NCBI GenBank assembly: GCA_964390045.1
Contig: CAYMGP010000035.1
Location: 1-39,342 of the forward strand
Direction of reading: 5' to 3'
Length of the DNA stretch: 39,342 nt
From: an uncultured Spirochaetaceae bacterium
Lineage (GTDB): Bacteria; Spirochaetota; Spirochaetia; SZUA-6; DRHE01
Part shown: positions 6,911 to 31,612 of the stretch, piece by piece
Layout: every line of letters begins with the position of its first letter
How positions within the stretch are numbered: position 1 is the stretch's first letter
Position numbers and translations under genes: made by a program
Notes under the pieces: model-generated
Told to the model about the DNA's origin: nothing
The model's input: only the letters and a program-made list of their open reading frames with translations
Databases searched by the model: none

Positions 6911-7540
6911 ATGGTGCAACGGCGCAACGAAGACTGGTTGAGAGAGCTGAAGAGCTCCGGCCCGGTTCGGGAGCAGGCCCTTGCCGACCTGCGGGCGATA
7001 CTGGTGCGCGGGCTCGGCTATGCTCTGCGGGGTTGGCGGAGAAGGACGGGCGGGGACTTCGAGGCTCTGACTGAGGATTTCTGCCAGGAAGCGCTGCTCC
7101 GCATCCTGGGAAACCTCGACAGCTTCGAGGGGCGAAGCCGTTTCACAACCTGGGCCCATAAGATCGCCGTGCGGGTTGCCCTGACCGAGCTCAGGCGCAA
7201 ACGCTGGCGGGATGTTTCTTTGGACAAACTGGTGGACGAAGAGGGCGGGGAGTCGATGATGGCCGACAGCGAGACCGGCCCGGAATCCGCCGCTCAGCGA
7301 TCCGATCTGGTTTCCTGGATGAAACGCCTCATGTCCGAGGAGCTGACCGAGAAGCAGCGTACCGCCATTACGGCCATTGCCTTCGCCGGGATGCCCATAG
7401 AAGAGGTTGCCCGCCGCCTGGATACCAACAGAAATGCTCTTTACAAACTGCTGCACGACGGCCGGCTGCGCCTGAAGCGCCGCCTGGCGCAGGAGGGAAT
7501 GAGCCCGCAGGACATCCTGGAAAGCATGAGCGGAAGGTAA
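6911..7540 (+). CDS. ECF-type RNA polymerase sigma factor (sigma-70 family, regions 2 and 4)
   Basis: Region-2-like EALLRILGNLDSFEGRSRFTTWAHKIAVRVALTELRR. Region-4 HTH IEEVARRLDTNRNALYKLLHDGRLRLKRRL. Confidence 0.8.
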   Translation: MVQRRNEDWLRELKSSGPVREQALADLRAILVRGLGYALRGWRRRTGGDFEALTEDFCQEALLRILGNLDSFEGRSRFTTWAHKIAVRVALTELRRKRWRDVSLDKLVDEEGGESMMADSETGPESAAQRSDLVSWMKRLMSEELTEKQRTAITAIAFAGMPIEEVARRLDTNRNALYKLLHDGRLRLKRRLAQEGMSPQDILESMSGR

Positions 7541-7584: not shown

Positions 7585-7896
7585 ATGAGCTTCTTTGCGA
7601 AAGTAGGAAAATTTTTACGGTCCCTGTTTTTGGCGCGAGCCGGGCGGGCCGTTGACGAAATCGAACGGCTCAAGGGCATGATCCAAATGATAGAGGCCAC
7701 GGAAGACACAGAGATCGCCTGCGGAGAAGCGTATCGTCTGCTCGACCAGTTCGCCGACATGCTGCTGCGCGGCGAAGATGCGGCGGCGCTCATGCCTCAG
7801 GTGCAGCATCATCTGGAGATCTGCATGGACTGCCGCGAAGAGCTGGAGGCCCTGCTCGACGCCCTGCGCGCGACACGCGCAACGGGAGCGGCCTGA
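7585..7896 (+). CDS. Putative cytoplasmic zinc-binding (ZAS-type) anti-sigma factor
   Basis: C-x29-H-x3-C-x2-C (C46 ... HLEICMDC), reminiscent of RsrA-type anti-sigma factors. There is no TM segment. It sits immediately downstream of the ECF sigma gene. The true start may be an internal ATG near 7678-7687, which would place the first Cys at about residue 12 as in RsrA. Confidence 0.5.
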   Translation: MSFFAKVGKFLRSLFLARAGRAVDEIERLKGMIQMIEATEDTEIACGEAYRLLDQFADMLLRGEDAAALMPQVQHHLEICMDCREELEALLDALRATRATGAA

Positions 7897-7957
7897 GCTG
7901 CCTGATCGATCGAAGCACTCGGAGCAGTGGAAGCAGCGTCTGTCTGGAAATAAAAAA

Positions 7958-7992
7958 GGCCGTTCCGGAAGGTAAACTTTTCCGGAACAGCC
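7958..7992. terminator. Bidirectional intrinsic terminator between the convergent anti-sigma and hsp20 genes
   Basis: Perfect 9-bp stem GTTCCGGAA / TTCCGGAAC with a 9-nt loop. On the minus strand it is followed by TTTTTTATTT. On the plus strand it is followed by a moderately T-rich stretch. Confidence 0.6.
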
Positions 7993-8016
7993 GTTGTTCT
8001 GTTTGACTGAGAAACC

Positions 8017-8439
8017 TTAGGCCTTCTTCACGTCGATTGTGCGTGGTTTGGCTTCGGGCTTCTTGGGAATGGTTACTACGAGCATCCCGTTGTTGAACTC
8101 AGCGTTGATTTTCTCGCGATCGGCATCTTTGGGCAGGACGAAAGTCCTGGCGAACTCTTTGGTCCGTCGTTCGCGAATCAGGTATCCGTTGCCCTGCTCT
8201 TCCTTTTTCTCCTCTTTCTTGGAGGAGAGAGTCAGAATGTTGTCCTCCACTTTCAGGTCGATGTCCTCTTCTGTAAGCCCGGGCAGCTCGGCTTCCATCA
8301 GGTAGCCGTCCTCGTTCTCCCGAACATCCACGGCCGGAGTTCTGCTTTTCCAGACCGGTGTATCGGTAAAGAAATCGTCGAGCAGATTGTCGAAGTCAAA
8401 CAGCTCGTTCGGTCTCGTGTATCTGATAAGTCCTTTCAT
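8017..8439 (-). CDS. Hsp20 / alpha-crystallin small heat-shock protein
   Basis: Alpha-crystallin domain (GYLMEAELPGLTEEDIDLKVEDNILTLS ... FARTFVLP ... AEFNNGMLVVTIPK). I start it at the internal ATG (MKGLIRYTRPNELFDFDN), which has AGGAGG 6 nt upstream. The longer ORF starting at 8511 would run through the promoter. Confidence 0.85.
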   Translation of the reverse strand: MKGLIRYTRPNELFDFDNLLDDFFTDTPVWKSRTPAVDVRENEDGYLMEAELPGLTEEDIDLKVEDNILTLSSKKEEKKEEQGNGYLIRERRTKEFARTFVLPKDADREKINAEFNNGMLVVTIPKKPEAKPRTIDVKKA

Positions 8440-8477
8440 CTCGCACCTCCTGTGTTTCTTACGTACATTAATATAAA

Positions 8478-8494
8478 TGCATATTTCGTGCCAA
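8478..8494 (-). promoter_or_regulatory. Sigma-54 (RpoN) -24/-12 promoter for hsp20
   Basis: The minus strand reads TGGCACGAAATATGCA, with GG and GC at exact consensus spacing (consensus TGGCACG-N4-TTGCW). It lies about 40 nt upstream of the hsp20 ATG. Confidence 0.5.
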
Positions 8495-8549
8495 ATCTGA
8501 GAGAAATCCAATGATCTTTTTAATTATATATATAATAAACAATTAAAAC

Positions 8550-8569
8550 GAAACAGAGAGATTTGTTTC
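8550..8569. promoter_or_regulatory. Inverted repeat GAAACA-N8-TGTTTC, about 70 nt upstream of the sigma-54 promoter (candidate enhancer/UAS)
   Basis: Read directly. It sits in an AT-rich region that also contains a (TA)5 run at about 8525-8535. Confidence 0.3.
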
Positions 8570-8647
8570 AAACAGGGCAAATTTGGGAATGGGTCAATAT
8601 TACACTATGTGTCATAATAGCCCTAATTTTGGGTTAAATTGATACGA

Positions 8648-9151
8648 TCAAGGAAGATCGGGCAGGAGGTCTTTGACCGCCTGGATCGCTTCCGCCGGGC
8701 TCTGTACCTCCCTGGTGAACAGGGCCTGACCGCGATTACGGTCCGGATCCAAGCGCCAGGAATGCAGTCCCACCACGGGGATACCGGCGGCTGCGGCCAG
8801 GGCGATCTCGGAAAGGGTGCCGTAGGAACCGGAAACGGCGACCAGTACCCGGCTGCTCTTGACGACCAGCACGTTGCGGGCCTCTCCCATTCCCGTGACC
8901 ACCGAGCAGCTCAGGTAGGGGTTGGCTCCTTGCCGCGAGTTTCCGGGCAGAATCCCCAGGGTCGTTCCCCCCTGCGATCTGGCTCCTCTGCAGGCCTGTT
9001 CCATCACCCCGCCCAGACCGCCGCAGACCAGGGTCCATCCCTGCTCGGCGATCAGGCGGCCCAATTCGTAGGCCAGTGCGGCGACATTGCGGTCGCAGCG
9101 CCGGGCTCCGATCACCCCTGCGTACAGCGGACTCTGCGCGTGTTTGGCCAA
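8648..9151 (-). CDS. LOG/TIGR00725-family Rossmann-fold protein (lysine-decarboxylase-like)
   Basis: GVIGARRCD ... LVCGGLGGVMEQACRGA ... GILPG ... VVTGMGEARNVLVV ... GSYGTLSEIALAAAAGIPVVGL. I start it at TTG, with GGAGG 5 nt upstream. The ATG-initiated ORF from 9229 would overlap leuB by 29 nt and carry a non-conserved leader. Confidence 0.6.
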   Translation of the reverse strand: MAKHAQSPLYAGVIGARRCDRNVAALAYELGRLIAEQGWTLVCGGLGGVMEQACRGARSQGGTTLGILPGNSRQGANPYLSCSVVTGMGEARNVLVVKSSRVLVAVSGSYGTLSEIALAAAAGIPVVGLHSWRLDPDRNRGQALFTREVQSPAEAIQAVKDLLPDLP

Positions 9152-9200
9152 CCTTTCCTCCGGTTGTCTCCCTGCAGCCCTGCAGGGTGCAGGCGGCGGT

Positions 9201-10250
9201 TCAGCCGAGGCCCTGCACCACCATGTCACCGATTTCCGAGGTGCTGTAGCCCATCTTGCCGGCGTTCATGCTCTTCATCTTAGCGATTGTTTTCACTACC
9301 GAGCGCTCCACGGCCTCCGCCGCCTCGTTTTCACCGAGGACCTGGAGCATCATATGGGTCGCCAGGATGGCGGCAATCGGGTTGATGACACCCTGGCCCG
9401 CATACTTTGGGGCGGAACCGCCTATAGGCTCGAACATGGAAACACCTTCGGGATTGATATTGGCGCCCGCGGCCACGCCCATGCCGCCCTGAATCATGGC
9501 CCCGAGGTCAGTTATAATGTCTCCGAACATGTTTGTGGTCACAATCACGTCGAACCACTCGGGATTTTTCACCATCCACATGGTGATGGCGTCTACATGG
9601 GCGTAGTCGGCCTCGATGTCCGGGTATTCACCACTGACCTCGTTGAAGGTGCGCATCCACAGGTCGTGGGCGTAGGTCAGCACATTGGTTTTGGCACAGA
9701 GGGTGAGCTTCTTCATCCTGTCTCGTTTCCGGGTGTACTCGAAGGCGTAGCGAATACAGCGTTCCACACCTTTGCGTGTGTTGATCATCTGCTGAACGGC
9801 GACCTCCTCGGCGGTGCCCTTTTTCAGGAACCCCCCGATTCCGGCGTACAGGCCTTCCGTGTTTTCCCTCACCACGACGAAGTCGATGTCCTCCGCCGTT
9901 TTTCCGGCCAGTGGAGTCTCCACGTTTTTGTACAGCTTCACGGGACGCAGGTTTATATACTGGTCCAGGGCGAAGCGCAGGTACAGCAGGATTCCCTTCT
10001 CCAGTATCCCCGGTTTGACATCGGGATGTCCGATGGCCCCCAGATAGATGGCGTCGAATCTCCGCAGCGTGTCGACGGCATCGTCGGGAAGTACTTCCCC
10101 CGTATCCAGATAGTGCTGCCCCCCGTAGTCGAATCTGGTGAAGCGGAAGCGAACGTTAAAGTGTTCGCTGACCGCCTCCAGTACCTTGAGACCCTCCTGA
10201 ATCACCTCCGGACCGGTTGCGTCTCCCGGGATCACTGCGATTTCATACAT
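9201..10250 (-). CDS. leuB: 3-isopropylmalate dehydrogenase-like beta-decarboxylating dehydrogenase
   Basis: [19 protein letters not shown], and the substrate/metal site GSAP ... [14 protein letters not shown] ... NPIAAILA. The length is 349 aa. It could alternatively be a homoisocitrate or tartrate dehydrogenase. No leuACD genes are adjacent. Confidence 0.7.
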
Positions 10251-10321: not shown

Positions 10322-11137
10322 TCACCGCCGTGTGCGCCCCCTACCGGGGGCGGGAGTCAATGCTTGGGCCGTGTTGTAGCGCCTGGCCAAGCGCTGCAGA
10401 CAGGTGCTGCGGGATCGCTGGCAGGCGTCGTTCCAGCGGTCATAGTGGGCGAGGAACTCTGCGGCGGGCACAATGGTCAAACGCGATGAGGCAAAGAAGA
10501 TCCGCCTCCCGGGGTAGAGCACGAATCCCGCCTGGATGATATCCTGCGCCTGGGCGCGCTTGAGGTGGCTCCAACAGCGTCTTGAGTTCGGGCTCTGCGG
10601 AACAAAGATGAAACCGATACGTTTCGCTCCGGCCTCTACGATCAGCTCCACGTGCCTCTTGCCGTATCCTCCATGATAGAAGAATCTGCTGTCCGGACGC
10701 AGATCCCTTTCCATTCTGCAGATCGCGGCGATCATACGGGCCTGAAAGGGCAGTGCAGCGCGCGCAGCGCGTACAGCGCGCATAGCGCACACAGCAAGCT
10801 CCGGCGGGCGTCCCGGCGGCTGCGGCGAATCGGTAGCCGGGACGAAGTACAACTTGGGTGATTTGCAGGTGTGCCGCCGTTCACTGGGAAGAGGATCGAG
10901 AAGCCTGATGATTTCCGCTTCGGCCAGGCTGGAGACCCTTTTTTTCGCCGCGGATGCGGAAATACAGAGCTCCCTGCCCAGCGTGGCGTAGTTCAGGGGC
11001 TTTCCCTGCCAGGCTGATAAGACGGCTATGGTGGGCTGCAGCTCTTCCACACTAATAACAACGGACCTGTCGACAGCTTTGCTTTTAAGGCCATTGCGAG
11101 GTTGCGGATATCCGTATATGATTGAAGCAACCTGCAC
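10322..11137 (-). pseudogene. N-terminally truncated DUF4143-type AAA+ ATPase (COG1373) remnant
   Basis: Only the C-terminal DUF4143-like part is present (LNYATLGRELCISASAAKKRVSSLAEAEIIRLL, KSPKLYFVPATDS, FFYHGGYGKRHVELIVEAGAK). There is no P-loop/AAA part. The upstream space is occupied by the methyltransferase gene on the other strand. It has a GTG start and an odd low-complexity C-terminus. Confidence 0.45.
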
Positions 11138-13134
11138 GATCGGGAGAGGATGTCATTTCACGCCAGCGCCCCGCGATACAGGCCGAACTGCCGCTGATGT
11201 TTCCCGTTCTACCCCAGAACCGCAAATATCTCGGCTCCAAATTCCGGCTTCTAGATTTTCTCAAAGAGACGATCCTCTCGCGGGCCGGACGCTTCGAGGT
11301 ATTCGCCGACCTTTTTGCAGGCACCGGAATCGTGGGCAAATGTTTCAACAACCGCGACTGCAGAGTCATCGCCAATGACCTCCTGTACTCCAACTACGTG
11401 GTGAACAGGGCTTTTCTCACCTCCCGAGGCGACAACGTCGATCTCGAGAGGCTGGGCGATCTGACGCCTGAGCTCAACGCCAGCCCTCCGATCGAGGGCT
11501 ACGTTTTCCACAGCTACGGCGGTACCTATTTCAGCCGCGACAACGCGGCCAAGATCGACGCGGTTCGCCAAGCCATCGACCGTGTCTATGAAGCCGGACG
11601 CTGCAGCGAGCAGGAGCGGTATGTGCTGCTCGCCGGCCTGCTGCTCGCCGTGGACAAGGTGGCCAACACGGTTGGCCAGTATGACGCCTTCCTGAAGCAT
11701 ATCGACAGGGAGGATCTGAACAGTTCCGAAAGGCACCTGCGCGACAGCAATGTCGACAAGCCCCTCAGGCTGCTGCTGCCTGCGCTGGACATCGACGCGA
11801 ACGGCGGCAACGAGGTCTACAATACGGACGCCAATCTCCTGGTCCGCGACCTGGAGGCCGATGTCCTTTATCTCGATCCCCCCTATAACACGCGCCAGTA
11901 TGTGGACTGCTATCACGTCCTGGAGAATATCATGCGCTGGGAAAAGCCCAGGCTGTACGGAAAGACGAAGAAGTTTCAAAGGGACAACCTGAAGAGCCGC
12001 TTTTCCAGAAAAAGCGAGGCGTTCCAGGCTCTCTCGGAGCTAATCGAGGCGGCCCGGGCCGAGCACATCTTCCTGAGCTACAACAGCGAGGGGGTTATCG
12101 ACGCCGAGGCGATCGCCGGGATCTTCAGGGAGAAGGGAAGGTTGGAAGTATTTGAGAAGGAGTACCCCGTGTTCGGCAATGGGGCGGGCAGCTCCCGTAA
12201 GCGAACCGTGACGGAAAGGATTTTTTACTGCAGAAACGGGGGGGGCGGCGGCGGAAAACGCTCGCAGCAGAAGATCGAGCTGTTTACGGAGACGGGGGAA
12301 AGCCGGGGGTTTTACTCGCCGCGCAACCGCCTCAACGATCTTACGGGAAAAGAGTGGGTCTACTGGAGCAAGAGTGTCATCAACAAGCCCTATCCTCCCA
12401 ACCTGCAGCACAGCCTGCGCAGCCGTCACGGGGGCCAGAAACCTCCCGACCTGTGCGGAGATCTGATAGAGGTTTTCAGCAAACGCGGGCAGTGGGTTCT
12501 GGATCCCTTCGCCGGGGTGGGAGGAACCCTGCTCGGAGCCTCGCTGCGCGGCAGGCAGGCCCTGGGCATCGAGATCAATCCGGAGTGGATCGATATCTAC
12601 AGGCAGGTATGCTCTCTGGAAAAAATCGAGGAGCAGAGAACGATCTGCGGCGACAGTCGGGTCGAGCTCGATCGACTCGCCGCGAAGAACTGGCTCTGCG
12701 ACCTCATCCTTACAGATGTCCCCTTTTGGAGCATGGACAAGGCGAAACGGAGCAGGGGTGAGTTCAAGAGGGTGGGAGAACAGCAGCACAAACGGCGCCG
12801 CTCCAAGCTCGGCACCTTCAACGATACCACCTACGGCTCGAAGGAGCAGTGGCTCGCCGAGATGAAAGTAATTTTCGAAGCGGCATTGCCCCTTCTCAAA
12901 GACCGGGGGTATGTTGTTGTTTTCATAGGCGAGATGTACCAGGGCGGCCGCTATCATTTTCTCAGCGCCGAGCTGGGGTCCGTGCTCTCAGAGCTCGGGC
13001 TGACCGCCAAGGCCAACCTCGTCTGGTACGACGTGAGCAAATCCCTGCACATCTACGGCTACCAGTACGAGTACATTCCCTCGCTGATACACCAGAATAT
13101 CCTGGTGTACCGGAAAGACAGTACGAAGCTGTGA
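11122..13134 (+). CDS. Two-domain DNA methyltransferase: N-terminal Dam-like (D12 class) N6-adenine MTase and C-terminal N6/N4-type MTase domain
   Basis: The N-terminal domain has RKYLGSKFRLLDFL ... VFADLFAGTGIV ... LYLDPPYNTRQY (FxGxG before DPPY, the alpha-class order). The C-terminal domain has HGGQKPPDLCGDLIEVFSKRGQWVLDPFAGVGGTLLGA ... GIEINPEW ... LILTDVPF. The true start may be the internal ATG (MFPVLPQNRKYLGSKF). No endonuclease gene is adjacent. Confidence 0.8.
   Translation: MKQPARSGEDVISRQRPAIQAELPLMFPVLPQNRKYLGSKFRLLDFLKETILSRAGRFEVFADLFAGTGIVGKCFNNRDCRVIANDLLYSNYVVNRAFLTSRGDNVDLERLGDLTPELNASPPIEGYVFHSYGGTYFSRDNAAKIDAVRQAIDRVYEAGRCSEQERYVLLAGLLLAVDKVANTVGQYDAFLKHIDREDLNSSERHLRDSNVDKPLRLLLPALDIDANGGNEVYNTDANLLVRDLEADVLYLDPPYNTRQYVDCYHVLENIMRWEKPRLYGKTKKFQRDNLKSRFSRKSEAFQALSELIEAARAEHIFLSYNSEGVIDAEAIAGIFREKGRLEVFEKEYPVFGNGAGSSRKRTVTERIFYCRNGGGGGGKRSQQKIELFTETGESRGFYSPRNRLNDLTGKEWVYWSKSVINKPYPPNLQHSLRSRHGGQKPPDLCGDLIEVFSKRGQWVLDPFAGVGGTLLGASLRGRQALGIEINPEWIDIYRQVCSLEKIEEQRTICGDSRVELDRLAAKNWLCDLILTDVPFWSMDKAKRSRGEFKRVGEQQHKRRRSKLGTFNDTTYGSKEQWLAEMKVIFEAALPLLKDRGYVVVFIGEMYQGGRYHFLSAELGSVLSELGLTAKANLVWYDVSKSLHIYGYQYEYIPSLIHQNILVYRKDSTKL
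12237..12244 (+). repeat. Homopolymeric G8 tract, followed by (GGC)3, inside the MTase inter-domain linker (RNGGGGGGKR)
   Basis: Read directly: aacggggggggcggcggcgga. Confidence 0.85.
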
Positions 13135-17266: not shown

Positions 17267-18337
17267 ATGTTCGCCAAGCTTGAAAAGATGATGGAACGAC
17301 ACCAGGAGCTCCAGGGCCTGGTTTCAGACCCGGCGGTGATCAAGGATCAGGCCCGCTACAAGGAGCTGATGCAGGAGCTGGCCAACCTGGATGATATCGC
17401 CGCCGAATACACCCGTTACAAGCGGCTGGAATCCGAGATAACGGACGCCGAGCAGATGATCGAGGAGGGGGCGGAGGGCGAGATCGTCGACCTGGCCCGC
17501 GAGGAGCTCGAGGAACTGAGGCAGAGAGAGCAGATGTCTCTCGGGCAGCTGAAGGTGCTGCTCATTCCCAGGGATCCGATGGACCTGAAGAACATCATCA
17601 TGGAAATCCGGGCCGGCACGGGGGGGGAAGAAGCGGCCCTTTTCGCCGCCGACCTTTTTCGCATGTATTCGAAGTACGCGGAATCCCGACGCTGGAACAT
17701 TGAGGTGCTGTCCTCTCATCAAACCGAGATCGGGGGCTTCAAGGAAATCATTTTTTCTATATCGGGAAAGAACGTGTACGAGAGCCTGCGCTACGAAAGC
17801 GGCGTACACAGGGTGCAGCGGGTTCCCGTAACCGAGGCGGGGGGGCGTATTCACACCTCGGCGGTGACCGTGGCGGTGCTGCCCGAAGCGGAGGCTACCG
17901 AGGTCGAGATCCGGCCCGAAACCCTGCGGATCGATGTCTACCGGTCTTCGGGCCCGGGCGGGCAGAGCGTCAATACCACGGACTCGGCTGTACGGATTAC
18001 CCATATACCCTCGGGATTGGTGGTTACCTGTCAGGACGAAAAATCGCAGCATAAAAACAAGGCCAAGGCCCTGCGGGTTCTGCGGGCCCGTCTTTTCGAG
18101 CAGGAGGAAGAGAAGAAGCACGCCGAGCGGGCGGCCTCCCGAAGGATGCAGGTGGGTTCGGGAGACCGTTCGCAGCGGATCCGAACGTATAACTTTCCCC
18201 AGAATCGAATCACGGATCATCGTGTCAATCTGACCCTCTACCGCCTCGAGGAGGCCTTGCTCGGAGACCTGGAGGAGATCTTACAGGCTCTCAAGCTCAG
18301 CGCCCGCGAGGAGTACCTCAAAAAGCTGGCCATATGA
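17267..18337 (+). CDS. prfA: Peptide chain release factor 1
   Basis: GGQ motif ([23 protein letters not shown]) and the RF1-type PVT tripeptide ([14 protein letters not shown]). Confidence 0.9.
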
Positions 18338-21509: not shown

Positions 21510-24500
21510 ATGAAGACTTGGACCAAGAGAGCCTCCATTACGATACTCCTTATAAGCGTATTACTGGCCGCCGTTAACTGTAAGAATCCGTTCACTCAGA
21601 TCGGCCTGGGCGACAAGGTCGATCTGGAGGTTCCGGACCTCGCCGTAACCAGCCACGGCAATGGAGGGTATGTCGGCGGGACAATTGCACTGACCGGTAC
21701 CTATGCCGACGACATCGATGTGGCGAGCATCCGAATTTCAATCGCCGGCGAGGCTTTCGCCGAGGCCACGGTCAACCCGAACAACACGTGGAGTTTCACA
21801 ATTGACACCACGACTTTTACAGATGGTGAAAAGGAGCTGGTCATTTTGGTAGAGGATTCCTCGGCAAAGGTGATCGAAAAACGCCTACTTCTGTTTTTCG
21901 ACAACAAGCCGCCCCTCGTGCTGGTCAGCGTTCCCTTCAACTACGACCCGGCCAACAACGCCTTCAACGGGACTTTCAGTATCAAGGGCGACGCCTACGA
22001 CGCCTTCGGGATCCAGGAGGTCACCGTCGAGCTGAGGGATATCACCGATCCGGCCAACAAGATCGTGGCCGCCGCGGCCGGCACAAACAGCTGGAGCGCG
22101 ACCTTCGACAGTACGACCCTCTCACCCCAGAACGGCGATTTCTACGTCATCGTCACGGCCAAAGACAAATCGGACAACGCCAACAGCTATGTTTTCCACT
22201 CCTACGACATCTACGATTGGTACGAGACCAATCATCCGAGCAATATAGAGACCGTTACGGTGGAACAGCTGTACAGCATGGACCAGGGCGTGGACGAGGG
22301 CCTTCTGCTGAAGCCCGCCGATCTGCCCGCCCTGCAGAAACTTCCGCCTGTCTCCGGATCGGAGCTGATAATCAAGATCGACCAGGCGGAAGACCTTCCC
22401 AAGTTTGTGATAAGCAACCCGGATGAGAACTCCTCCCCGGCCGAAAACATCATCGGGGCCAGCGCCAATGCCATCGGCATCGTGGAGGACGATGACGGGG
22501 TGAATCCGAGCACAATCGAGATCAGCATCGACGGAGGTGCCTGGGAGTCTCCCACCCAGATCATTCCGAACACGGGATATCCGCTCTCGGTTCGCTGGCA
22601 GTACGATTTGCCCGCTCTTAGCGAAGGGCTGCACGACATACAGGTGCGGGCTCAGGATATGTACGCGAAGTCGAGTTCCAGCCCGCTGGTGGGATTCACC
22701 ATCGATACAGGCGCCCCGGCCGTAGCGGTTGATACCCCGGATCAGGGCAGCTATCACAGCGGCGACTTCCTGATTACGGGAACGGCCTCCGATCCCCAGG
22801 GTGTGACCGAGGTGAAGGTCAGCACGGACGGGGGTAGCAGCTACAACGATGCCAACGGCCTGGGTTCCTGGGACTACCTGGTAACCGTGCCCGGCGACGG
22901 CTCGTGGGACGGGAACCAAACGATCAAGGTGCTGGCCAAGGACGGCTCGGGAAAAACGGCCTACACCAACCTGCAGGTTATTATCGACACGGAAGACCCG
23001 ATCGTGAGCTTCCTCACCCCGGGCAACTCCGCCACGGTGAACGGAGAGGTTTTACTCAAGGGGGTTTCTTCAGACAACACCCAGGTGAGCAAGGTTGAGC
23101 TCAAGATCGGCAAGGTTGATCCCTGGATCGAGATGAGCGGCACCTACAACTGGGAGTACACGATAGACAGCGTGAGCTACGCCAACGACACCCACTCCGA
23201 CCAAACCCCGCCGGCCAGCGGCGTCTGGAAGCTGAACATTCAGGCCCGGTCCACCGACGTGGCCGGCAACGTCACAGTGCTCGGCAACTACAACCTGTTC
23301 ATCGACAATGACATGGACAAGCCTACGGTCAACATCGTTTCTCCGGCCGACCTGCAGAACATAGGCGGTTCGGTGCTGGTCAACGGCACGGCCTTCGACG
23401 ACGATGCCGTGCAGAAGGTGCAGATGAAGCTCGATCTGGACAACGACGGACTGTTCACCAATCAATACAGCCTGAACGGAGACGCGGACTACGACGATCC
23501 GTTCGAAAAGGAAACCGAGTGGTACGATATCAGCGGGATCACCACCTGGACCCAGGAGCTGAACACGGCCGGCGAGCTCTACCAGACCGACGGCAACAAT
23601 GACGGCTGGATCACGGTGCGGGTGCGCGCGGTGGACATCAACACGGTGGAAGGCAATCCTCAGGAAATCAAGATCCACTTCGACGACACGATTCCCCGCT
23701 TCGAGAACATCAGCCACGCTTCGGGCGACTACGTCAAACAGACCTTCAACCTGACAGCCGATGTTCTGGACGACGTCGCGGTGGCCGATATCTACATCAG
23801 CTACGACGGCGGGGTAAACTACGACGATGTGCTCAACGATCCGAGCTACAGCGGGATGTTCAGCGTGATCCCCGACGGCTACCACATCGACATTCCCATC
23901 GACACCTCGGCGACCTCGAGCGGCATTCTCTACCTGCGCCTCAAGGTAGTGGACAATGCCAACTTCCAGAAACTGAACTACATCAACCTCAATGTTGATA
24001 ACGTATATCCAACAGGCGCCTATCCGGGCGACAGCATGGACATCTACGGCGCCGACATATTTTCCCGTGTTCAGGGCACGGCCGAAGATACGGGCAGCGT
24101 CAGCGGGATCGAGGAGATCCACGTCTACTTCGTCCGCGGCGCGAATGTTTACAATCCTCTGACCGGAGCGACAAGCGCCTGGGTACTCAATGACTTCGGT
24201 GTCGACGGCGGCGGAAATGCGCCGTACACGACGGATCCGAGCTTCAAGATCCTCATCGACAACCGCTACGAGCTCGGAGACGACAACGGCAGCTTCGGCG
24301 ATCTCGACGGTCACGACGAGTCCCTGACGGTCGGCGGATCGACGTACAACTGGTGGGCGGAGTTCGACTCCACCAAGATAAGCGACGGCACGATCGACAT
24401 CCACTATGTGGTCTTCGACAACGCCGGCAACGGACATCACTATCTGAAGCCCGGATTTATCAAGAACCACAAGCCCTCGATCACCTCACTGACGGTGGGC

Positions 24501-26906
24501 AGCGATGTGGACATGAGCAATGACGTTGAGGTTGATGAGCGGTTTCCATACGTGGGATCGTTTACAGCCCGCAACAAGATGTATATCGCGATCGTCGCCG
24601 ACGACAACAATCCTCCCGGCCTCAGCTACGAGATCATCCACAATCCGGCCGGCTATAACAACACGGTCTTTACGTCTTCCTCCGGGCAGTTCTTTATCAC
24701 CGCCTCGCCCGAGTACGATGACGGACCCACGGATTTCCTCTGCAGGGTCACGGACAGCGACGGCATCGTGGTGGAAACGACGATCCTGGCCACGATCGAG
24801 AACGAGGATGCAGTGGATCCGGCGGTAACCATCGAAGCCCTGGTGGACGGTGACGCCCCGACGGGACACATTGAGCTATACGACGACAGCCTGTTCGACG
24901 GTCCTCCGGACGCCGATGTCAGCGGCACGATCGTGCTGCACGGCACGGCAAGCGACAACCAGCGGATCCAGTCGATCCAGGTCAAGATTACGAATTTCGA
25001 CGCGGGCAATGGTCCGGGCAATTACCACCCAGTGGCCACCTGGTCCGGCGGCCATCTCGATGATTCCGGCGATGACAATTTCACCATCATCGACCCGGAG
25101 CTTTCCGAAGCGGTCGGGCACCAGATAAAATGGGAATACTCGTGGGATACGAGCGGGGTGACCAATTCGGCGGCCAAGAACATAAGCGTGGAGTTCAAGG
25201 TGACGGACTTCGCCGCGCCGGTGCGAACCAAAAGCGACACCAAGTACTACGACGTGGTGCCCTACATCGCCGCGGTTTCAACCCAGACGGGCGGAATCAA
25301 GGACGGCAACATCCGGGCCGCCTCCGGAAACTACTCGATCCGCCAGAACCTGGTAGACAACTCGGATCTGATTACCTTGACGGGCTACAACCTGCAGCCT
25401 ATCACCGGGGGTGTGCGCGTTTCCAGCGATCCCGATGGATTGGTCGGCACCACCCTGCAGGGAACCTCCCTTACGGTGGACAGCTCGGGCATACCCTGGG
25501 AGGTGCTGGTGGTGCGCAAGGACACCGATCGATCCGGGTACCTGACAGTTGTAGCCGGAACGGCCGCCGATCCGATTCCCAGCCTGAACAACGTCAACGA
25601 CAACTCGCAGAGCTACAATCAGGAACCGGACATCTACTCCAAGAACGATCTGCTGACCGACGACCGCTACCTGCGTCTGTTCGAGGTCACGGAAACGGGC
25701 TACGACAACGGCTACTATCCCGCCATGATCATGAACGGGGATAATCCCGTGTTCGCCTACTGCGAGGACAACAGCGGGGAAGCCCGCAGAAACGCTACGA
25801 CTATGGGCGAGGGGTGGTACCACAGGATGAGCGCCTTGACCCGCGACGGCGTGGACAACTACTATCAGGTTTCCGTGCACGACGCCTTCGGCAACAGCCG
25901 ACACGGCCACCTCAACATCTTCTACAACAACTACGGGGGGCGTATCTATCCCAACAACTGGCCGGAGTCGGCCGGGGACGGCAACAATGTCATCGCCCTG
26001 GACAACATCACGTACAGTGGTACCAAACTCAACCGCTTCCACTACCCGCGCTTGATCGCGGTGGGCGACGACACAAAAGCTCAGGTATATCTGAGCTACT
26101 ACGACGACGAACCGTCGATCGAGGATCTTATCATCCGCGTCTTCCAGATAGGCACCAACTGCGACGGCACCGAGCTGACCAATCTGGCCGCCGGCGTGGA
26201 CAGCAATCAGAACGAAGCCAACGGCGACGGAACCGCTCCAGGAAGGAACACGCTGGCCGGTTCGGCGAGCAAATACTTCGACATGGGGTTGACCTCGGGC
26301 GGGGACCTGGTCGTAGCCTACTACGACGAGATGGCCAATCGATTGAAGGTCACCTACAATGAGGATCCCGTCAACGCCTCCGGTCTGTACGGCGGAAGCT
26401 TTCCGATTCATACGAGCATGGACACGACGTACAACGGGGCCCACGTATCCCTGGCCGTGGACACCGCGGATCACATCCATATCGCCTACTACGATTCGGC
26501 CAGCGCCGATCTCAAGTACATCTACCTCGACAGCTACAACGACAGCACCCCGGACATCGCACGGGTCGATGCCTATCACTCGGTAGGCTTGTGGACCGAC
26601 ATCCAGGTCGATTCTTCGGGAATACCCTACATCGCCTATTACAACAACTCGGAGAACGGCACGGTGGATTCGATAAAACTGGCTTACTTCCTCGGCAGTC
26701 TGCCCACGGTCACCGACGGAGTGGACGGCTCGGGCAACATCACGGGGAACTGGGAATGTATGACCGTTCCCGTAACGGGTGTGCCCCGCGGCGGCCTGCC
26801 CCAGTTCAACAGGGTAAGTCTGGGCTTCGACGCCTCGGGCGATCCGCTGCTGGGCTACCTGGCCGATGATATCGAGTATTCGAGGATGCTTCCCGAGCTT
26901 CCCTAG
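21510..26906 (+). CDS. Giant (1798 aa) surface lipoprotein with many Ig-like (Big-type) repeat domains and a C-terminal repeat region
   Basis: Signal peptide plus a Cys (LLAAVNC). Recurring domain signature G[TA]xDdxxVxxVxv. The C-terminal approximately 200 aa contain repeated (I/V)AYYD ... LK(V/Y) strand-like units. Confidence 0.6.
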   Translation: MKTWTKRASITILLISVLLAAVNCKNPFTQIGLGDKVDLEVPDLAVTSHGNGGYVGGTIALTGTYADDIDVASIRISIAGEAFAEATVNPNNTWSFTIDTTTFTDGEKELVILVEDSSAKVIEKRLLLFFDNKPPLVLVSVPFNYDPANNAFNGTFSIKGDAYDAFGIQEVTVELRDITDPANKIVAAAAGTNSWSATFDSTTLSPQNGDFYVIVTAKDKSDNANSYVFHSYDIYDWYETNHPSNIETVTVEQLYSMDQGVDEGLLLKPADLPALQKLPPVSGSELIIKIDQAEDLPKFVISNPDENSSPAENIIGASANAIGIVEDDDGVNPSTIEISIDGGAWESPTQIIPNTGYPLSVRWQYDLPALSEGLHDIQVRAQDMYAKSSSSPLVGFTIDTGAPAVAVDTPDQGSYHSGDFLITGTASDPQGVTEVKVSTDGGSSYNDANGLGSWDYLVTVPGDGSWDGNQTIKVLAKDGSGKTAYTNLQVIIDTEDPIVSFLTPGNSATVNGEVLLKGVSSDNTQVSKVELKIGKVDPWIEMSGTYNWEYTIDSVSYANDTHSDQTPPASGVWKLNIQARSTDVAGNVTVLGNYNLFIDNDMDKPTVNIVSPADLQNIGGSVLVNGTAFDDDAVQKVQMKLDLDNDGLFTNQYSLNGDADYDDPFEKETEWYDISGITTWTQELNTAGELYQTDGNNDGWITVRVRAVDINTVEGNPQEIKIHFDDTIPRFENISHASGDYVKQTFNLTADVLDDVAVADIYISYDGGVNYDDVLNDPSYSGMFSVIPDGYHIDIPIDTSATSSGILYLRLKVVDNANFQKLNYINLNVDNVYPTGAYPGDSMDIYGADIFSRVQGTAEDTGSVSGIEEIHVYFVRGANVYNPLTGATSAWVLNDFGVDGGGNAPYTTDPSFKILIDNRYELGDDNGSFGDLDGHDESLTVGGSTYNWWAEFDSTKISDGTIDIHYVVFDNAGNGHHYLKPGFIKNHKPSITSLTVGSDVDMSNDVEVDERFPYVGSFTARNKMYIAIVADDNNPPGLSYEIIHNPAGYNNTVFTSSSGQFFITASPEYDDGPTDFLCRVTDSDGIVVETTILATIENEDAVDPAVTIEALVDGDAPTGHIELYDDSLFDGPPDADVSGTIVLHGTASDNQRIQSIQVKITNFDAGNGPGNYHPVATWSGGHLDDSGDDNFTIIDPELSEAVGHQIKWEYSWDTSGVTNSAAKNISVEFKVTDFAAPVRTKSDTKYYDVVPYIAAVSTQTGGIKDGNIRAASGNYSIRQNLVDNSDLITLTGYNLQPITGGVRVSSDPDGLVGTTLQGTSLTVDSSGIPWEVLVVRKDTDRSGYLTVVAGTAADPIPSLNNVNDNSQSYNQEPDIYSKNDLLTDDRYLRLFEVTETGYDNGYYPAMIMNGDNPVFAYCEDNSGEARRNATTMGEGWYHRMSALTRDGVDNYYQVSVHDAFGNSRHGHLNIFYNNYGGRIYPNNWPESAGDGNNVIALDNITYSGTKLNRFHYPRLIAVGDDTKAQVYLSYYDDEPSIEDLIIRVFQIGTNCDGTELTNLAAGVDSNQNEANGDGTAPGRNTLAGSASKYFDMGLTSGGDLVVAYYDEMANRLKVTYNEDPVNASGLYGGSFPIHTSMDTTYNGAHVSLAVDTADHIHIAYYDSASADLKYIYLDSYNDSTPDIARVDAYHSVGLWTDIQVDSSGIPYIAYYNNSENGTVDSIKLAYFLGSLPTVTDGVDGSGNITGNWECMTVPVTGVPRGGLPQFNRVSLGFDASGDPLLGYLADDIEYSRMLPELP

Positions 26907-26959: not shown

Positions 26960-29900
26960 ATGAAGCAGATCGCTATTGCAGCTCTTGTTTTTATTGCAGC
27001 GGCTTTCTGGGCGTTCGGACTTGGCGATCCCGAGGCGGGAGAATACGAAGCAGTCAACGGCTTGGAGAACTGGGACCACAGCATCGATATATCCGAATAC
27101 GAGGAGGGGAAGTACAACCTGATCATCCGCGGCACCGATGCGGCGGGAAACATCCAATACCAGGGTCCGTACAACGTATTCGTGGATCCGGCATCCGACC
27201 TGCCCGTGCTGCGTATTTCCAATCCGACGCCTGAAATGAGGGTGGGCGGCAGCCTCAATATAGTTGGCGCGAGCATCGATGACGACGGTGTACAAAGGGT
27301 TGAGATCCAGCTCGATGAGGGCGAGACCCGCACCGCGGAGGGCGCGGAGTTTTGGTCCCTTCGTCTCGATCTGGAGGGAATGGCCGACGGACGGCATACG
27401 ATCCGGGCCTGGGCGGTGGACGTCAACGGCAACGCCGGGGAGCCTCAGGAGGTCGCATTTCATCTCGACAGGCGGGCACCGCTGGTCGAGGTCGTCTCTC
27501 ACCAGAACAGCGCCCTGGTTTCCGGGACGGTTGTTCTCGAGGGTTACTTGCGCGACGCCAACGGCGTGAGCTCTCTGGCTTACAGCAGGCAGCGAGACGG
27601 TGCCTACGAGCCTCTCAAGATCTCCTACGATAAATCCGAGAAGCGATACAGCTTTGATTTGAAGATAGACACGGAAGAGCTGGTGGACGGTCCGCAAGTT
27701 TTCTGGTTTCGGGCCCAGGATACGACGGGATCAACAGCCTACCTGGCTTTCGCTCTGTTTGTAAACAATGAGAAGCCGCAGCTCGAGATCCTCTCACCGC
27801 AACAGGATAAAACCGTGAACGGCAGGATTCTGGTAGTGGGCAGGGCCCGCGACAGAATCGGCCTGAAATCCCTTTCCTACGATCTGGGTGGCGGGGAGAG
27901 CGGGGAGATCGAGCTGGTGCCTGGGAATCCTTTCTGGACCCAGGAGTTCGATTTGACGGGACGAAAGGCAGGAAACCTGCAGATAGCCTTCTCTTTAGAA
28001 AATCTGACAGGAGGAAGGAGCAACGAGAAACTCAAAGTCCGTCTGGATCCCGAATCGGACAGGCCGCGGGTTCTTTTCGCCGCACCGAAGCAGGACAGTG
28101 TTCAACCCGCGTCGTTCGAGGCCAGCGGCCACGTTCTCGATGACGACGGTGTACAGAGCATAGAAATCTCATTGGATGGATCAAATCCCAAGACAGTCTC
28201 TACAGAGGGTGCTTTCAGCGTCCCCTTTTCCGAGATCCCGGCGGGTCGCCATACTCTGATGGCTCGCGCAGTGGATATCCACGGGACGGCGGGCGAAGCG
28301 GCGGAACTCCAGTTCACAGTACGAGGAGAAAAACCTGTTATCGCCTTGACGGAGGTGAAAATCGCCGACGCCACGCACTCTTTTACCCCCGGTTTTCTCA
28401 TCGCTGCCGAACAAAAAGCAGCGCTCAGCGGCGAGATACGCTTTGCCGGGACCTCGATCAAGGCGGAGTACAGCCTGGGCGGCCGCGATTTCAAAGGATT
28501 GAGCCTGCGTAAGGCGGCGGAGGCGGACAGAAGGACTTTCGAAATCCCCCTGCCCAAGGATTTCGCTCCCGGCAGAGTCGATGTCCACATCCGTGCCACG
28601 GACGGCGTCGATGCGGCAGGAGAGTACAAAGGATTTGTTTTTCTGGGAAGCATCGAGGAGGCGCCCGCCGAGGTGATGTTCGTCGATGCCCGGATCGATG
28701 AGGAGGGCAGGGTTGCGCTGGACAGCGGACAGCCTCTGATCGGTTTCGTCCCCGGTTCGGTTGGCTCGGTCACGATCGAGCCGGAAACGGACCTGCTCCG
28801 GGTGAGTGCAGAAGGCTCGCTGGTGCGTATCGATGCGGTCAAGCCCGGGGTGAGCGAGCCCTTGAAGGTAAAGGCTGAGATCGGAAGTACCACGGTGAGC
28901 TCGGCGGCTCTGCGCTTCGTTACCGATGGTGAGCCTCCCGCAATGCAGGTCGCCCAGCCGGTAGTTGGATCTTGGTTGGGACAGAGCATGGTGCTCGAGG
29001 GAACGGTGAGCGATGCCAGCGGCGTTCGCAGCCTCGAATACACGCTCGGAGAAGATGAGTCTTTTACGGCGCTCGAGTTGAGCGCAACCGAGCCGGCAAC
29101 CAGCTTCTCAACGACAATTTCGTTGGGAGCGGTGGCTGAAGGGGCGTTTCTGTTCGTGTTAAGAGCCGTCGATCAGGCGGGCAATACAGCTATTGAGCGT
29201 ATACCCCTGTACAAAGACATCACCCGGCCGCTGCTGACCCTCGTCGCTCCGGGGACCGAGGATGAGCTCAATGGGTTGATTACTCTCGTCGGACAGGTAG
29301 AGGAGGAGGGAAGAATCGCAGCGGTGGAGTACAGCGAGGACGGCAGTACGTACAACAAGATTGCTGCATCCGGCGATTTTCACTTTGACATCAATCTGTC
29401 TCGATTCGAGTCCTTTCCGGAAAGCTTCGAGCTGCGCGCCGTGGACGCGGCGGGCAATGTCGGTACCCTGGTTCCGGCGCTTACCGTGAACAGAGAGGCT
29501 GACAAGCCGGTAGTCGAAATACAGATTCCCGGGGACGGTGAGGTGATCAAAAACGATTTTTTCATATCCGGAATGGTTTTTGACGACGATCAGGTCGCCG
29601 GGATTTCCTACAGCCTGGACGGCGGCGAGTTTCAGGACCTGCCGCCCGGCAACAACTTCACGGTCCCCCTTTCCATCGAGAGCATCAGCGACAATGAGCA
29701 TGTCATCGAGGTACGGGCCCAGGATAGCGGCGGACTTGCCGGCGATGTAGTATCCTCGACCTTCCTTGTCTCGACCTCGGAGCCCGAATCCACCCTGCTC
29801 AGCCCGGGCATCGACCAGCATGTCCGCGGCGTGATAGAGCTTTCAGGAGAGAGCGAAGATCCAAACGGTATCGATACAGTTTTTATATCCTTCGACAATG

Positions 29901-31612
29901 GGCACAGCTTTCAGCTCGCCGAGGGAGCGGAGCAGTGGCGCTACCGGCTGGACACCCGGCTGTTGGCGGACGGCACTCATGCTCTACTCATAAAAGCAGT
30001 TGACAACACAGGCACCGAAGGACTTTTTTCTTCGACGATAAACACAGACAACCAAGCTCCGCAGATCATCGTAGATACACCCTCCGACGGAGAGGTTTTC
30101 ACAGAGAGCCTGCATCTCGACGGACGATCCACGGACAATATAGCTCTCATGTCTCTCACGGCTAGGTTGATGCTGGCAATCACGGCTTCCGAGCTCGGCG
30201 GGGATATACGGGAGTACGATCTCTCTACAGAGGGAATCATCAACAGAGAGCTGGACATCGCAGAGCTTGCCGGCGGATGGTACAATCTCAACCTGGCGGC
30301 GCTGGATGCAGCGGGCAACGAGAGCTATGTTTCCCGAAACATCCTGATACAGCAGAGCCCGGATGTCGAAAGGGTAGATCTGATGTTCCCGACCCCCGGC
30401 GAGACGCTGGCAGGCACCTTTTCTGTCAGCGGTCGCGTCGTGTCCGAGGAAACGACGCCCAGCGTGCTCGTGCTGCTCGACGGCACGATGCTCGATTCGG
30501 CGCCGGTCAATGAAAACGGATTTTTCTCTCTGGATCTCGGACCGGAATCAGTAGAACAGGGACTGCATACGCTGCAGGTGCAGGTGCCGCGGTCGCAAAG
30601 CTTTGCGCTCGTTTCAGAGGAACAAACGATACTGTACAGGCGTAGCGGTTCGTGGGTACAGATCACCAGCGCGGCGGGTGGAGATTTTATTAGCGGGCGG
30701 CCGCTGCTGGAAGGCCGGGCAGGGTACTTCCTCGATCCCGTGGATTCTGAAGACGGTGAGGAGCTCAAAGCACACAAGCGCGAGCTCGTTGAGCATGCCG
30801 TGAAAAGAGTCGAAGTAAGCTTCGACAACGGCAAAACATTTCAACGGGCCGACGGCAAAGAATCGTGGCGCTTCCGTGTGGAGACGCAGCAGCTGGAGAA
30901 CGGCTCCCTCGGGGTGCTGGTAAAAGCGTCGTTTGCCGACGGAGCCAGCGCCGTGACCAGGACGCAGCTTCAGGTGGATACCGAAGAGCCCAAGATCGTT
31001 CTACTCAGCCCCAGAGAAGGGGAGCGATTCAATGAGGAAATTCAGCTGCGGGGCACGGCCGACGATGATGAAACAGGGCTGCAGAGCGTAGAGATCAGTC
31101 TCAGGGAGGGAGACAAAAGCCGCTACGGCGTGCCGAAATTCATCCAGGGATTGTATCTCGACATCCATGCCATGGGCGCCACCTACGCCGACGTCGGTTT
31201 GGGGCTGACCTTTTTCGACGACAATGTAAAGCTACAGTTTCAAACGGGCATATCCCCTCCCGGACGGTTTTCCGGACTGGTAATAGGCGCCAAGTTGCTG
31301 GCAAATATAGCCTCCGTGCCGTTCGGCTATTTTTTCGGGCCCTCGTGGGATTTCTTTTCCATGTCGTTCGCCCTGGGCGCCGACTTTTCTTATTTCACTA
31401 TGTCCGGCGACAGCATCGCCTTCACTGGAGACGGTCTGGTTCTGGCCGCGGTGTTGGCACAGCTCGAGTTTGCCCGTTTCGAGCTTCGAGACTGGCGTTT
31501 CTTCGGAAGCTATTCGCTTTACAGCGAGATCCAGCTCTGGTTTATCTCCTCCGATGTGGAGGCTGGCCTGGCTCCGCGCCTCAGCTTCGGTTTCCGCATG
31601 GGCTTGTTATAG
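26960..31612 (+). CDS. Giant (1550 aa) secreted Ig-like-repeat protein, paralogous to the upstream gene, with a C-terminal beta-rich putative membrane-anchor domain
   Basis: RBS taGGAGGcagg. Signal peptide. At least 10 repeats of the G.a.DDDGVq.vEi.lDgG type. The last approximately 170 aa show an alternating hydrophobic pattern ending in FGFRMGLL. Confidence 0.6.
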   Translation: MKQIAIAALVFIAAAFWAFGLGDPEAGEYEAVNGLENWDHSIDISEYEEGKYNLIIRGTDAAGNIQYQGPYNVFVDPASDLPVLRISNPTPEMRVGGSLNIVGASIDDDGVQRVEIQLDEGETRTAEGAEFWSLRLDLEGMADGRHTIRAWAVDVNGNAGEPQEVAFHLDRRAPLVEVVSHQNSALVSGTVVLEGYLRDANGVSSLAYSRQRDGAYEPLKISYDKSEKRYSFDLKIDTEELVDGPQVFWFRAQDTTGSTAYLAFALFVNNEKPQLEILSPQQDKTVNGRILVVGRARDRIGLKSLSYDLGGGESGEIELVPGNPFWTQEFDLTGRKAGNLQIAFSLENLTGGRSNEKLKVRLDPESDRPRVLFAAPKQDSVQPASFEASGHVLDDDGVQSIEISLDGSNPKTVSTEGAFSVPFSEIPAGRHTLMARAVDIHGTAGEAAELQFTVRGEKPVIALTEVKIADATHSFTPGFLIAAEQKAALSGEIRFAGTSIKAEYSLGGRDFKGLSLRKAAEADRRTFEIPLPKDFAPGRVDVHIRATDGVDAAGEYKGFVFLGSIEEAPAEVMFVDARIDEEGRVALDSGQPLIGFVPGSVGSVTIEPETDLLRVSAEGSLVRIDAVKPGVSEPLKVKAEIGSTTVSSAALRFVTDGEPPAMQVAQPVVGSWLGQSMVLEGTVSDASGVRSLEYTLGEDESFTALELSATEPATSFSTTISLGAVAEGAFLFVLRAVDQAGNTAIERIPLYKDITRPLLTLVAPGTEDELNGLITLVGQVEEEGRIAAVEYSEDGSTYNKIAASGDFHFDINLSRFESFPESFELRAVDAAGNVGTLVPALTVNREADKPVVEIQIPGDGEVIKNDFFISGMVFDDDQVAGISYSLDGGEFQDLPPGNNFTVPLSIESISDNEHVIEVRAQDSGGLAGDVVSSTFLVSTSEPESTLLSPGIDQHVRGVIELSGESEDPNGIDTVFISFDNGHSFQLAEGAEQWRYRLDTRLLADGTHALLIKAVDNTGTEGLFSSTINTDNQAPQIIVDTPSDGEVFTESLHLDGRSTDNIALMSLTARLMLAITASELGGDIREYDLSTEGIINRELDIAELAGGWYNLNLAALDAAGNESYVSRNILIQQSPDVERVDLMFPTPGETLAGTFSVSGRVVSEETTPSVLVLLDGTMLDSAPVNENGFFSLDLGPESVEQGLHTLQVQVPRSQSFALVSEEQTILYRRSGSWVQITSAAGGDFISGRPLLEGRAGYFLDPVDSEDGEELKAHKRELVEHAVKRVEVSFDNGKTFQRADGKESWRFRVETQQLENGSLGVLVKASFADGASAVTRTQLQVDTEEPKIVLLSPREGERFNEEIQLRGTADDDETGLQSVEISLREGDKSRYGVPKFIQGLYLDIHAMGATYADVGLGLTFFDDNVKLQFQTGISPPGRFSGLVIGAKLLANIASVPFGYFFGPSWDFFSMSFALGADFSYFTMSGDSIAFTGDGLVLAAVLAQLEFARFELRDWRFFGSYSLYSEIQLWFISSDVEAGLAPRLSFGFRMGLL

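Follow-up and report, generated by a model that had tools for sequence, protein, structure and literature searches.

How is the hsp20 gene of an uncultured Spirochaetaceae bacterium switched on? The gene lies on the minus strand of the stretch of DNA analyzed here (assembly GCA_964390045.1, contig CAYMGP010000035.1, positions 1-39,342; 39,342 nt, hereafter the window) and is separated from the preceding minus-strand gene, a member of the SLOG/TIGR00725 family (8648-9229), by an intergenic region of 208 nt (8440-8647) with a GC content of 31%, compared with 58% window-wide. A preliminary description had placed in this region a near-consensus sigma-54 promoter for hsp20 and an inverted repeat, GAAACA-N8-TGTTTC, as the candidate upstream enhancer. 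The sigma-54 holoenzyme forms a closed complex that cannot open a promoter unless a hexameric AAA+ enhancer-binding protein (EBP), bound upstream, contacts it by looping. Overall, we consider it highly probable that hsp20 is a monocistronic unit dependent on sigma-54 and on an EBP, with the EBP acting from three dyads that differ from the proposed repeat and an AT-rich block lying between these dyads and the promoter.

Three features define the gene and its candidate promoter:

8017-8439, minus strand: hsp20 coding sequence, 140 amino acids, Hsp20/alpha-crystallin family.
8478-8493, minus strand: sigma-54 -24/-12 element TGGCACGAAATATGCA, with GG at 8491-8492 and GC at 8479-8480.
8465-8469, minus strand: predicted transcription start, at ~8467, giving a leader of ~28 nt.

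In sigma-54 promoters the GC doublet occupies positions -13/-12, and the predicted start follows from this rule. The box, on the same strand as hsp20 and 38 nt upstream of its ATG (52 nt when measured from the -24 G), was found where the preliminary description had placed it and with the features ascribed to it: the GG and GC doublets are exactly ten bases apart, as a sigma-54 promoter requires, and the only deviation from TGGCACG-N4-TTGCW is an A for the first T of TTGC. With at most one mismatch allowed, TGGCACGAAATATGCA is the sole match to this consensus in the window, where 0.31 would be expected. As the preliminary description had suggested, both strands of the window were also scanned with a position-specific scoring matrix (PSSM), which we built from the table of 18 known E. 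coli sigma-54 promoters in PMC2831329. The box scored 22.1 bits on this matrix, for which the training promoters range from 9.8 to 22.5 bits, whereas the runner-up in the 39 kb reached 14.3 bits. The maximum over 40 Markov-shuffled windows was 17.8 bits, and none reached 22.1.

Comparison of related loci provided a second line of evidence. Nine non-redundant orthologous hsp20 loci, one of them in a complete 4.84-Mb metagenome-assembled genome (CP070696.1), all share the synteny Iso_dh - SLOG - hsp20, and all nine carry TTTGGCAC-N5-TGCA with the -24 G located 50-64 nt before the ATG. Among these orthologues, TTTGGCAC has a mean column identity of 0.96 and nTGCA one of 0.91, whereas the spacers on either side reach 0.41-0.49. 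Furthermore, the box precedes hsp20 homologues with only ~40-66% identity in unrelated neighbourhoods, where it scores 15.5-21.7 bits. These more distant loci comprise L007 (Sediminispirochaetaceae), L041, L043/L044 (Spirochaetia), L046 and L014, together with L040 from the cultured species Treponema primitia (ZAS-1) and L045 (Treponemataceae). The box was found in 15 related loci; it hardly varies among the nine orthologous loci and six more distant Spirochaetia lineages, T. primitia among them, whereas the flanking DNA is divergent. All but one of the sites scoring at least 15 bits in the 347 kb of compared DNA lie directly upstream of an hsp20 gene. Because of the PSSM score and this strong phylogenetic footprint, the proposal that a sigma-54 promoter drives hsp20 can be regarded as established as far as sequence analysis allows.

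An EBP would be expected to act from a conserved site farther upstream, and three 15-bp dyads with the symmetrised consensus GTGTCA-AAT-TGACAC (GTGTCA-N3-TGACAC) follow directly on the SLOG stop codon. They were scored with a symmetrised position weight matrix (PWM) that was trained on the window's clade only and then tested on independent lineages; the training sites were picked by eye, and the independent test guards only partly against circularity. In the following lines, centres are measured from the -24 G and identities are mean column identities among the nine orthologues:

8631-8645, minus strand: dyad 1, promoter-distal, GTATCAATTTAACCC; PWM score 17.4, centre at -147, identity 0.73.
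8609-8623, minus strand: dyad 2, middle, GGGCTATTATGACAC; PWM score 14.9, centre at -125, identity 0.71.
8591-8605, minus strand: dyad 3, promoter-proximal, GTGTAATATTGACCC; PWM score 17.3, centre at -107, identity 0.83.
8518-8548, minus strand: AT-rich block TAATT...TATATAtAATTA; identity 0.72, containing (TA)5 at 8525-8534.

Dyad 1 begins 3 nt past the stop codon of the SLOG/TIGR00725 gene, and the three sites are spaced by 22 bp (1 to 2) and 18 bp (2 to 3), or 40 bp between the outer two. All fit G-x-G/A-T-x-A-N3-T-x-A-C-x-C, and the conserved part of dyad 2 is its right half-site, TGACAC. When the PWM was applied to independent lineages, L007, L040, L041 and L043 had the best-scoring 15-mer of the whole 6-16 kb locus at ~100-150 bp from the -24 G on the upstream side, and three of these four had the second-best 15-mer there as well. 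The same pattern was seen in L045 and L046 and, more weakly, in L014. The spacing is also conserved: of the 14 loci with two outer sites detected, 13 show a distance of 39-40 bp between them (23 bp in L031), and the middle dyad, where seen, is 22 bp from the distal one, with a site scoring at least 7 at this offset in L033, L037, L040 and L045. The hsp20 loci without a sigma-54 box (L002, L003 and L015) are also without dyads. In L002 a sigma-70-like TTGACC-N17-TAAAAT is present instead, and in L003 (Leptospirales) and L015 the gene is preceded by a controlling inverted repeat of chaperone expression (CIRCE), TTAGCACTC-N9-GAGTGCTAA.

The dyads track the hsp20 promoter even where the upstream gene differs or is divergent, and they therefore belong to this promoter rather than to the SLOG gene. 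Activators of sigma-54 promoters bind roughly 80-200 bp upstream, a range that includes the 107-147 bp found here. The three dyads are thus likely to be the enhancer of hsp20, with position and conservation pointing to them as EBP binding sites. No second module combining dyads and promoter was detected when the 347 kb were searched with the dyad PWM and the sigma-54 PSSM. A lone dyad match with one mismatch, GTGTCAATCTGACCC, occurs at 18222-18236 in the 3' end of prfA, ~100 bp before prmC; it has no sigma-54 box nearby and is probably due to chance.

Two other loci have upstream regions with features of their own. In L014 (370-450) the leader extends over ~81 nt, and two hairpins rich in GC separate the Shine-Dalgarno sequence from the sigma-54 promoter. 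These hairpins are absent from other lineages and may represent an inserted element or a means of post-transcriptional control. In L023 (3830-3920), on a low-GC contig, two copies of the palindrome TGACAAGTTGTC lie 31 bp apart before a distant hsp20 homologue. Directly after them comes TTGGCAAAAGTTTTGT, which resembles a sigma-54 box but scores weakly (15.6 bits), and the arrangement may constitute another pairing of activator sites with a sigma-54 promoter.

The AT-rich character of the region, including the (TA)5 run, had been described beforehand, and the 208 nt at 31% GC bear this out. Between the dyads and the promoter, the AT-rich block is conserved at 0.72, against 0.41-0.49 in the stretches on either side. 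By eye, no clear match to the IHF consensus WATCAA-N4-TTR was seen in the block, which we consider a candidate for an intrinsic bend or for a site bound by an IHF/HU-type protein.

Taken together, these elements suggest the following mechanism. A closed complex of RNA polymerase with sigma-54 would occupy the -24/-12 box, while an EBP encoded elsewhere in the genome would bind as dimers to the three dyads (8591-8645). Three dimers would supply the six subunits of an active AAA+ ring, and the AT-rich block, alone or with an IHF/HU-type protein, may bend the DNA such that the ring touches sigma-54. ATP hydrolysis would then open the promoter to give a transcript whose short leader includes a strong Shine-Dalgarno sequence and which ends at a strong terminator. 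The function of the gene, together with the likeness of the dyads to NorR boxes, suggests some proteotoxic or redox/nitrosative stress as the inducing signal.

That likeness warrants closer comparison. The E. coli norVW enhancer consists of three GT-N7-AC dyads, each of them required, to which NorR binds; an IHF site and a sigma-54 promoter follow downstream, and the hexamer has been proposed to assemble from three NorR dimers (PMC2831303). In the E. coli norR-norV intergenic region, we located the NorR boxes GTCAATTTGAC, GTCATATCGAC and GTCATTTTGAC at spacings of 21 and 24 bp, followed by an AT-rich region and by TGGCACGCAATCTGCA, which scores 22.4 bits. The spirochaete region has the same succession of three tandem dyads, AT-rich DNA and a near-consensus -24/-12 box; the dyad core GTCA-N3-TGAC is identical, the spacing of 22 and 18 bp again amounts to about two helical turns, and the 22.1 bits of the spirochaete box nearly equal the E. 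coli score. By analogy, the spirochaete enhancer would work as the NorR enhancer does, the resemblance lying in core sequence and layout rather than in regulon membership.

A stronger claim would be that the activator is itself a NorR-family protein, with an iron-containing GAF sensor, an AAA+ domain and a helix-turn-helix (HTH) domain, and that nitric oxide (NO) or nitrosative stress, not heat, induces hsp20. In favour of this explanation, the inner 11 bp of the dyad consensus are those of all three E. coli NorR boxes, and the GT-N7-AC core, the three tandem sites, the AT-rich region and the sigma-54 promoter reproduce the published layout (PMC2831303, PMC1274295). We nevertheless consider it unlikely. 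NorR orthologues are reported in some beta- and gamma-proteobacteria only, not in Spirochaetia, and their NO-detoxifying targets are usually next to norR (PMC1274295). In contrast, the spirochaete target is a chaperone, specifically a small heat-shock protein, rather than an NO-detoxifying enzyme or any target of the norVW, hmp, norB or hcp type, no regulator gene is adjacent to it, and no EBP gene was found in the window or within 3-10 kb of hsp20 in the related loci inspected. The dyad centres, at -107 to -147 from the -24 G, are also more distant than those in E. coli (-63 to -108). The outer bases G1 and C15, conserved among the spirochaetes, are not shared by the E. coli boxes, which score 5.9-9.4 on the spirochaete PWM, and HTH domains that are unrelated to one another may recognise the same short palindromic core.

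The preliminary description had instead assigned the enhancer role to a repeat between the dyads and the AT-rich block:

8550-8569, minus strand: inverted repeat GAAACA-N8-TGTTTC, exact, not conserved; hairpin of -5.0 kcal/mol.

The repeat is present as described, and its centre, ~92 bp upstream of the predicted start, is at a distance that an EBP could use. Its conservation is at odds with this role: with a mean column identity of 0.48 and with indels, it lies in the least conserved stretch of the intergenic region. L001, which has the nearest orthologue detected in the genome collection (protein 82% identical), lacks the repeat, as do all other lineages compared. Perfect inverted repeats of 6 + 6 nt with loops of 0-20 nt occur on average 2.5 times per shuffle of the intergenic region, and 82% of shuffles contain at least one. 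The only other match to GAAACA-N8-TGTTTC in the window needs two mismatches and is not near any sigma-54 site. On grounds of low conservation and chance expectation we reject the repeat as the enhancer, and activation from it is highly improbable; the repeat probably reflects chance, or a weak hairpin at best. The order originally envisaged, with an upstream enhancer, an AT-rich region and a promoter, is preserved, with the dyads in the enhancer position. The surrounding spacer (8549-8590) is highly variable in sequence, as is the corresponding spacer in L001, L007, L033, L031 and L041. Several of these loci contain some short inverted repeat, followed by a T run in L001 and L007, and it is conceivable that the spacer holds a weak terminator that insulates hsp20 from read-through.

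A further alternative discards sigma-54 altogether, with TTGGCA serving as a sigma-70 -35 element and the dyads as classical repressor or activator operators. TTGGCA matches TTGACA at five of six positions, the TTGACNC half-sites resemble -35 hexamers, and a TATTAAT-like AT-rich stretch follows the box. However, a sigma-70 consensus scan of 7900-8750 found no site, the would-be -10 is not conserved, and the positions that are conserved are those of sigma-54 promoters, namely GG and, ten bases on, GC within TTTGGCAC-N5-TGCA. At 100-150 bp upstream the dyads are too far away for a repressor operator and have no -10 partner, and across loci dyads and sigma-54 box either co-occur or are both absent. 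We therefore give this alternative very little credence. That the box is a functionless consensus match in AT-rich DNA is extremely improbable: consensus matches with two mismatches are indeed about as frequent as expected (7 against 5.5), but the PSSM score falls far outside the null distribution, and across lineages of family rank the box hardly changes although the DNA around it diverges.

Other known modes of heat-shock control received no support at this locus. HrcA/CIRCE controls hsp20 homologues in other spirochaete-like lineages, namely those of L003 and L015, by repressing a sigma-70 promoter, in contrast to the sigma-54 activation proposed here; no CIRCE was found in the window with up to three mismatches. 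An Rfam search of the leader and intergenic region returned no family match at E <=1, and no RNA thermometer (ROSE, fourU or others) was supported in the hsp20 leader, whose predicted fold, with a free energy of -5.2 kcal/mol and a z-score of 0.44, shows no significant structure.

Transcription of heat-shock genes by sigma-54 RNA polymerase, described beforehand as uncommon, has more precedents than that judgment implies. In E. coli, the Hsp20-family gene ibpB is a known sigma-54 target, bound by sigma-54 in chromatin immunoprecipitation (PMC2831329). The two cases differ in architecture: in E. coli a weak box (TGGTAAATGGTTTGCT) is found 168-185 nt upstream, within the ibpAB operon, which has a sigma-32 promoter as well, whereas in the spirochaete no promoter was detected besides the near-consensus box. 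The two proteins are only distant relatives, with NCBIfam IbpA/IbpB models scoring 24-28 bits against cut-offs of 207-212. Chaperone and protease genes behind -24/-12 promoters are also known from Bacteroidota. In Flavobacterium psychrophilum, sigma-54-type (SM4) promoters have been assigned to mapped start sites before groESL, dnaK, grpE-dnaJ, htpG, clpB and lon (PMC9723704). A 2025 PSSM survey predicted enrichment of chaperones, including IbpA/COG0071, in the sigma-54 regulons of Bacteroidota and Planctomycetota and reported no such enrichment for Spirochaetia (PMC12316311). Our own comparison for the spirochaetes covers hsp20 only.

Among the loci compared, sigma-54-type boxes of 15-19 bits were also observed at hsp20 homologues of Bacteroidota, among them Segatella copri and contigs from the human gut, and at one of a Flexilinea genome: L004 2887, L008 2741, L009 2855, L018 3745, L024 1534, L025 1943 and L026 1560. 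A distance of ~260 nt separates the box from the matched region in the Segatella and gut loci, so that the leaders there would be long. The Bacteroidota/Segatella boxes fit the published sigma-54 proteostasis regulon of that phylum. They differ from the arrangement in our window, beyond belonging to another phylum, in their leaders of ~190-260 nt and in the lack of GTGTCA-N3-TGACAC dyads.

Several points weigh against an EBP-dependent sigma-54 promoter with three enhancer dyads. The PSSM derives from E. coli and not from a spirochaete, and the hsp20 start site is a prediction from the position of the GC doublet. Dyad 2 is weaker than its neighbours and in several loci does not reach the threshold of 7. 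The window has 8 loose matches to the dyad consensus, no more than chance would give (11.4 expected), so the case for the dyads rests on clustering, with 3 of the 8 matches falling within 55 bp (P ~3.6e-4), and on conservation across lineages. Finally, none of the related loci inspected had an EBP gene within 3-10 kb of hsp20, and for the source organism the search for rpoN and EBP genes covers one 39-kb contig.

This search combined Pfam scans (window genes and the neighbours in L001 and L007), motif regular expressions (the window and L001-L039) and Pfam tables (16 further loci). No EBP or RpoN signature (GAFTGA, Walker A or RpoN box) was present in any frame of the window, and Pfam scans of 26 of its 61 open reading frames (ORFs) of at least 150 amino acids, selected as the probable genes, detected no Sigma54_activat domain. 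Domain scans and motif search thus agree with the earlier statement that the window contains no EBP gene. The RpoN box was likewise absent from all related loci searched by motif (L001-L039). We infer activator binding at the dyads from their position and conservation. Sigma-54 does occur in spirochaetes, with one or two EBPs on average (PMC3162934). In the Treponemataceae-like loci L045 (8207-9688, minus strand) and L046 (8146-9642, minus strand), a gene divergent from hsp20 encodes a product of 493-498 amino acids and is followed by a phosphotransferase system EIIA-2 (PtsN-like) gene and by transketolase. The 493-amino acid ORF was considered as a divergent RpoN, an assignment left unsupported by Pfam and NCBIfam, neither of which gave a match.

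The hsp20 unit itself is delimited by two further elements:

8446-8451, minus strand: Shine-Dalgarno sequence AGGAGG, 6 nt before the ATG and invariant among orthologues.
7948-7992, minus strand: intrinsic terminator that ends the hsp20 unit, with a GC-rich stem of 13 bp and UUUUUUAUUU after it.

The predicted product carries the alpha-crystallin domain that characterizes small heat-shock proteins, with a Pfam PF00011 match at residues 38-138 that covers the whole profile (E 6.6e-27); NCBIfam Hsp18/Hsp20 models also match, every score being under the curated cut-off. More than 100 orthologues with 71-82% identity were found, all from uncultured Spirochaetaceae/Spirochaetia. Because AGGAGG precedes it and orthologues are ~140 amino acids long throughout, beginning with MKGL in the examples read, the ATG at 8439 is regarded as the true start of hsp20. 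The terminator hairpin has a minimum free energy of -23.5 kcal/mol (z -5.06), and none of 200 shuffles was equally stable. Given this strong terminator, hsp20 forms a monocistronic transcription unit.

An ECF (extracytoplasmic function) sigma factor gene (6911-7540, plus strand) and a 103-amino acid ORF (7585-7896, plus strand) converge on hsp20. The ORF has no family match and contains an HxxxCxxC motif (HLEICMDC), which is typical of zinc-binding anti-sigma factors. A functional link of this putative sigma/anti-sigma pair with hsp20 was considered and rejected: the pair is missing at several orthologous loci, being present in only some, so it is not tied to hsp20. A gene at 11122-13134 (plus strand) that encodes a 670-amino acid fusion of a D12-class N6-adenine DNA methyltransferase with an N6_N4_Mtase domain stays near hsp20 in most orthologous loci. 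Farther away, adjacent genes at 21510-26906 and 26960-31612 (both plus strand) encode giant proteins of 1798 and 1550 amino acids built of bacterial immunoglobulin-like repeats (Big_7, Big_13), which are probably surface proteins or adhesins.

In the literature that we searched, neither sigma-54-dependent hsp20 nor a GTGTCA-N3-TGACAC enhancer motif was described for spirochaetes. Sigma-54 control of a small heat-shock gene is already known in principle and is previously undescribed in Spirochaetia; no new type of mechanism is revealed. To our knowledge, little is known of the roles of sigma-54 in spirochaetes beyond the Borrelia Rrp2-RpoN-RpoS cascade, and the present analysis offers a concrete, conserved spirochaete target, hsp20, together with a defined motif of three dyads with fixed spacing. 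This motif can be used in complete genomes to find the remaining regulon and, via the regulon, the activator, and the prediction is directly testable in the cultivable Treponema primitia. Spirochaetia thereby join E. coli (ibpB), Bacteroidota and Planctomycetota as bacteria with protein-quality-control genes under enhancer-dependent transcription. The NorR-like boxes also raise a specific and checkable idea about the inducing signal. Should a NorR-type EBP operate in free-living and termite-gut Spirochaetia with a small heat-shock protein as its conserved target, which we regard as doubtful, that protein would be a dedicated nitrosative/redox-stress chaperone under sigma-54 rather than the product of a classical heat-shock gene. 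It would also extend a family that has so far been described only in beta- and gamma-proteobacteria and is regarded as a near single-target NO sensor.

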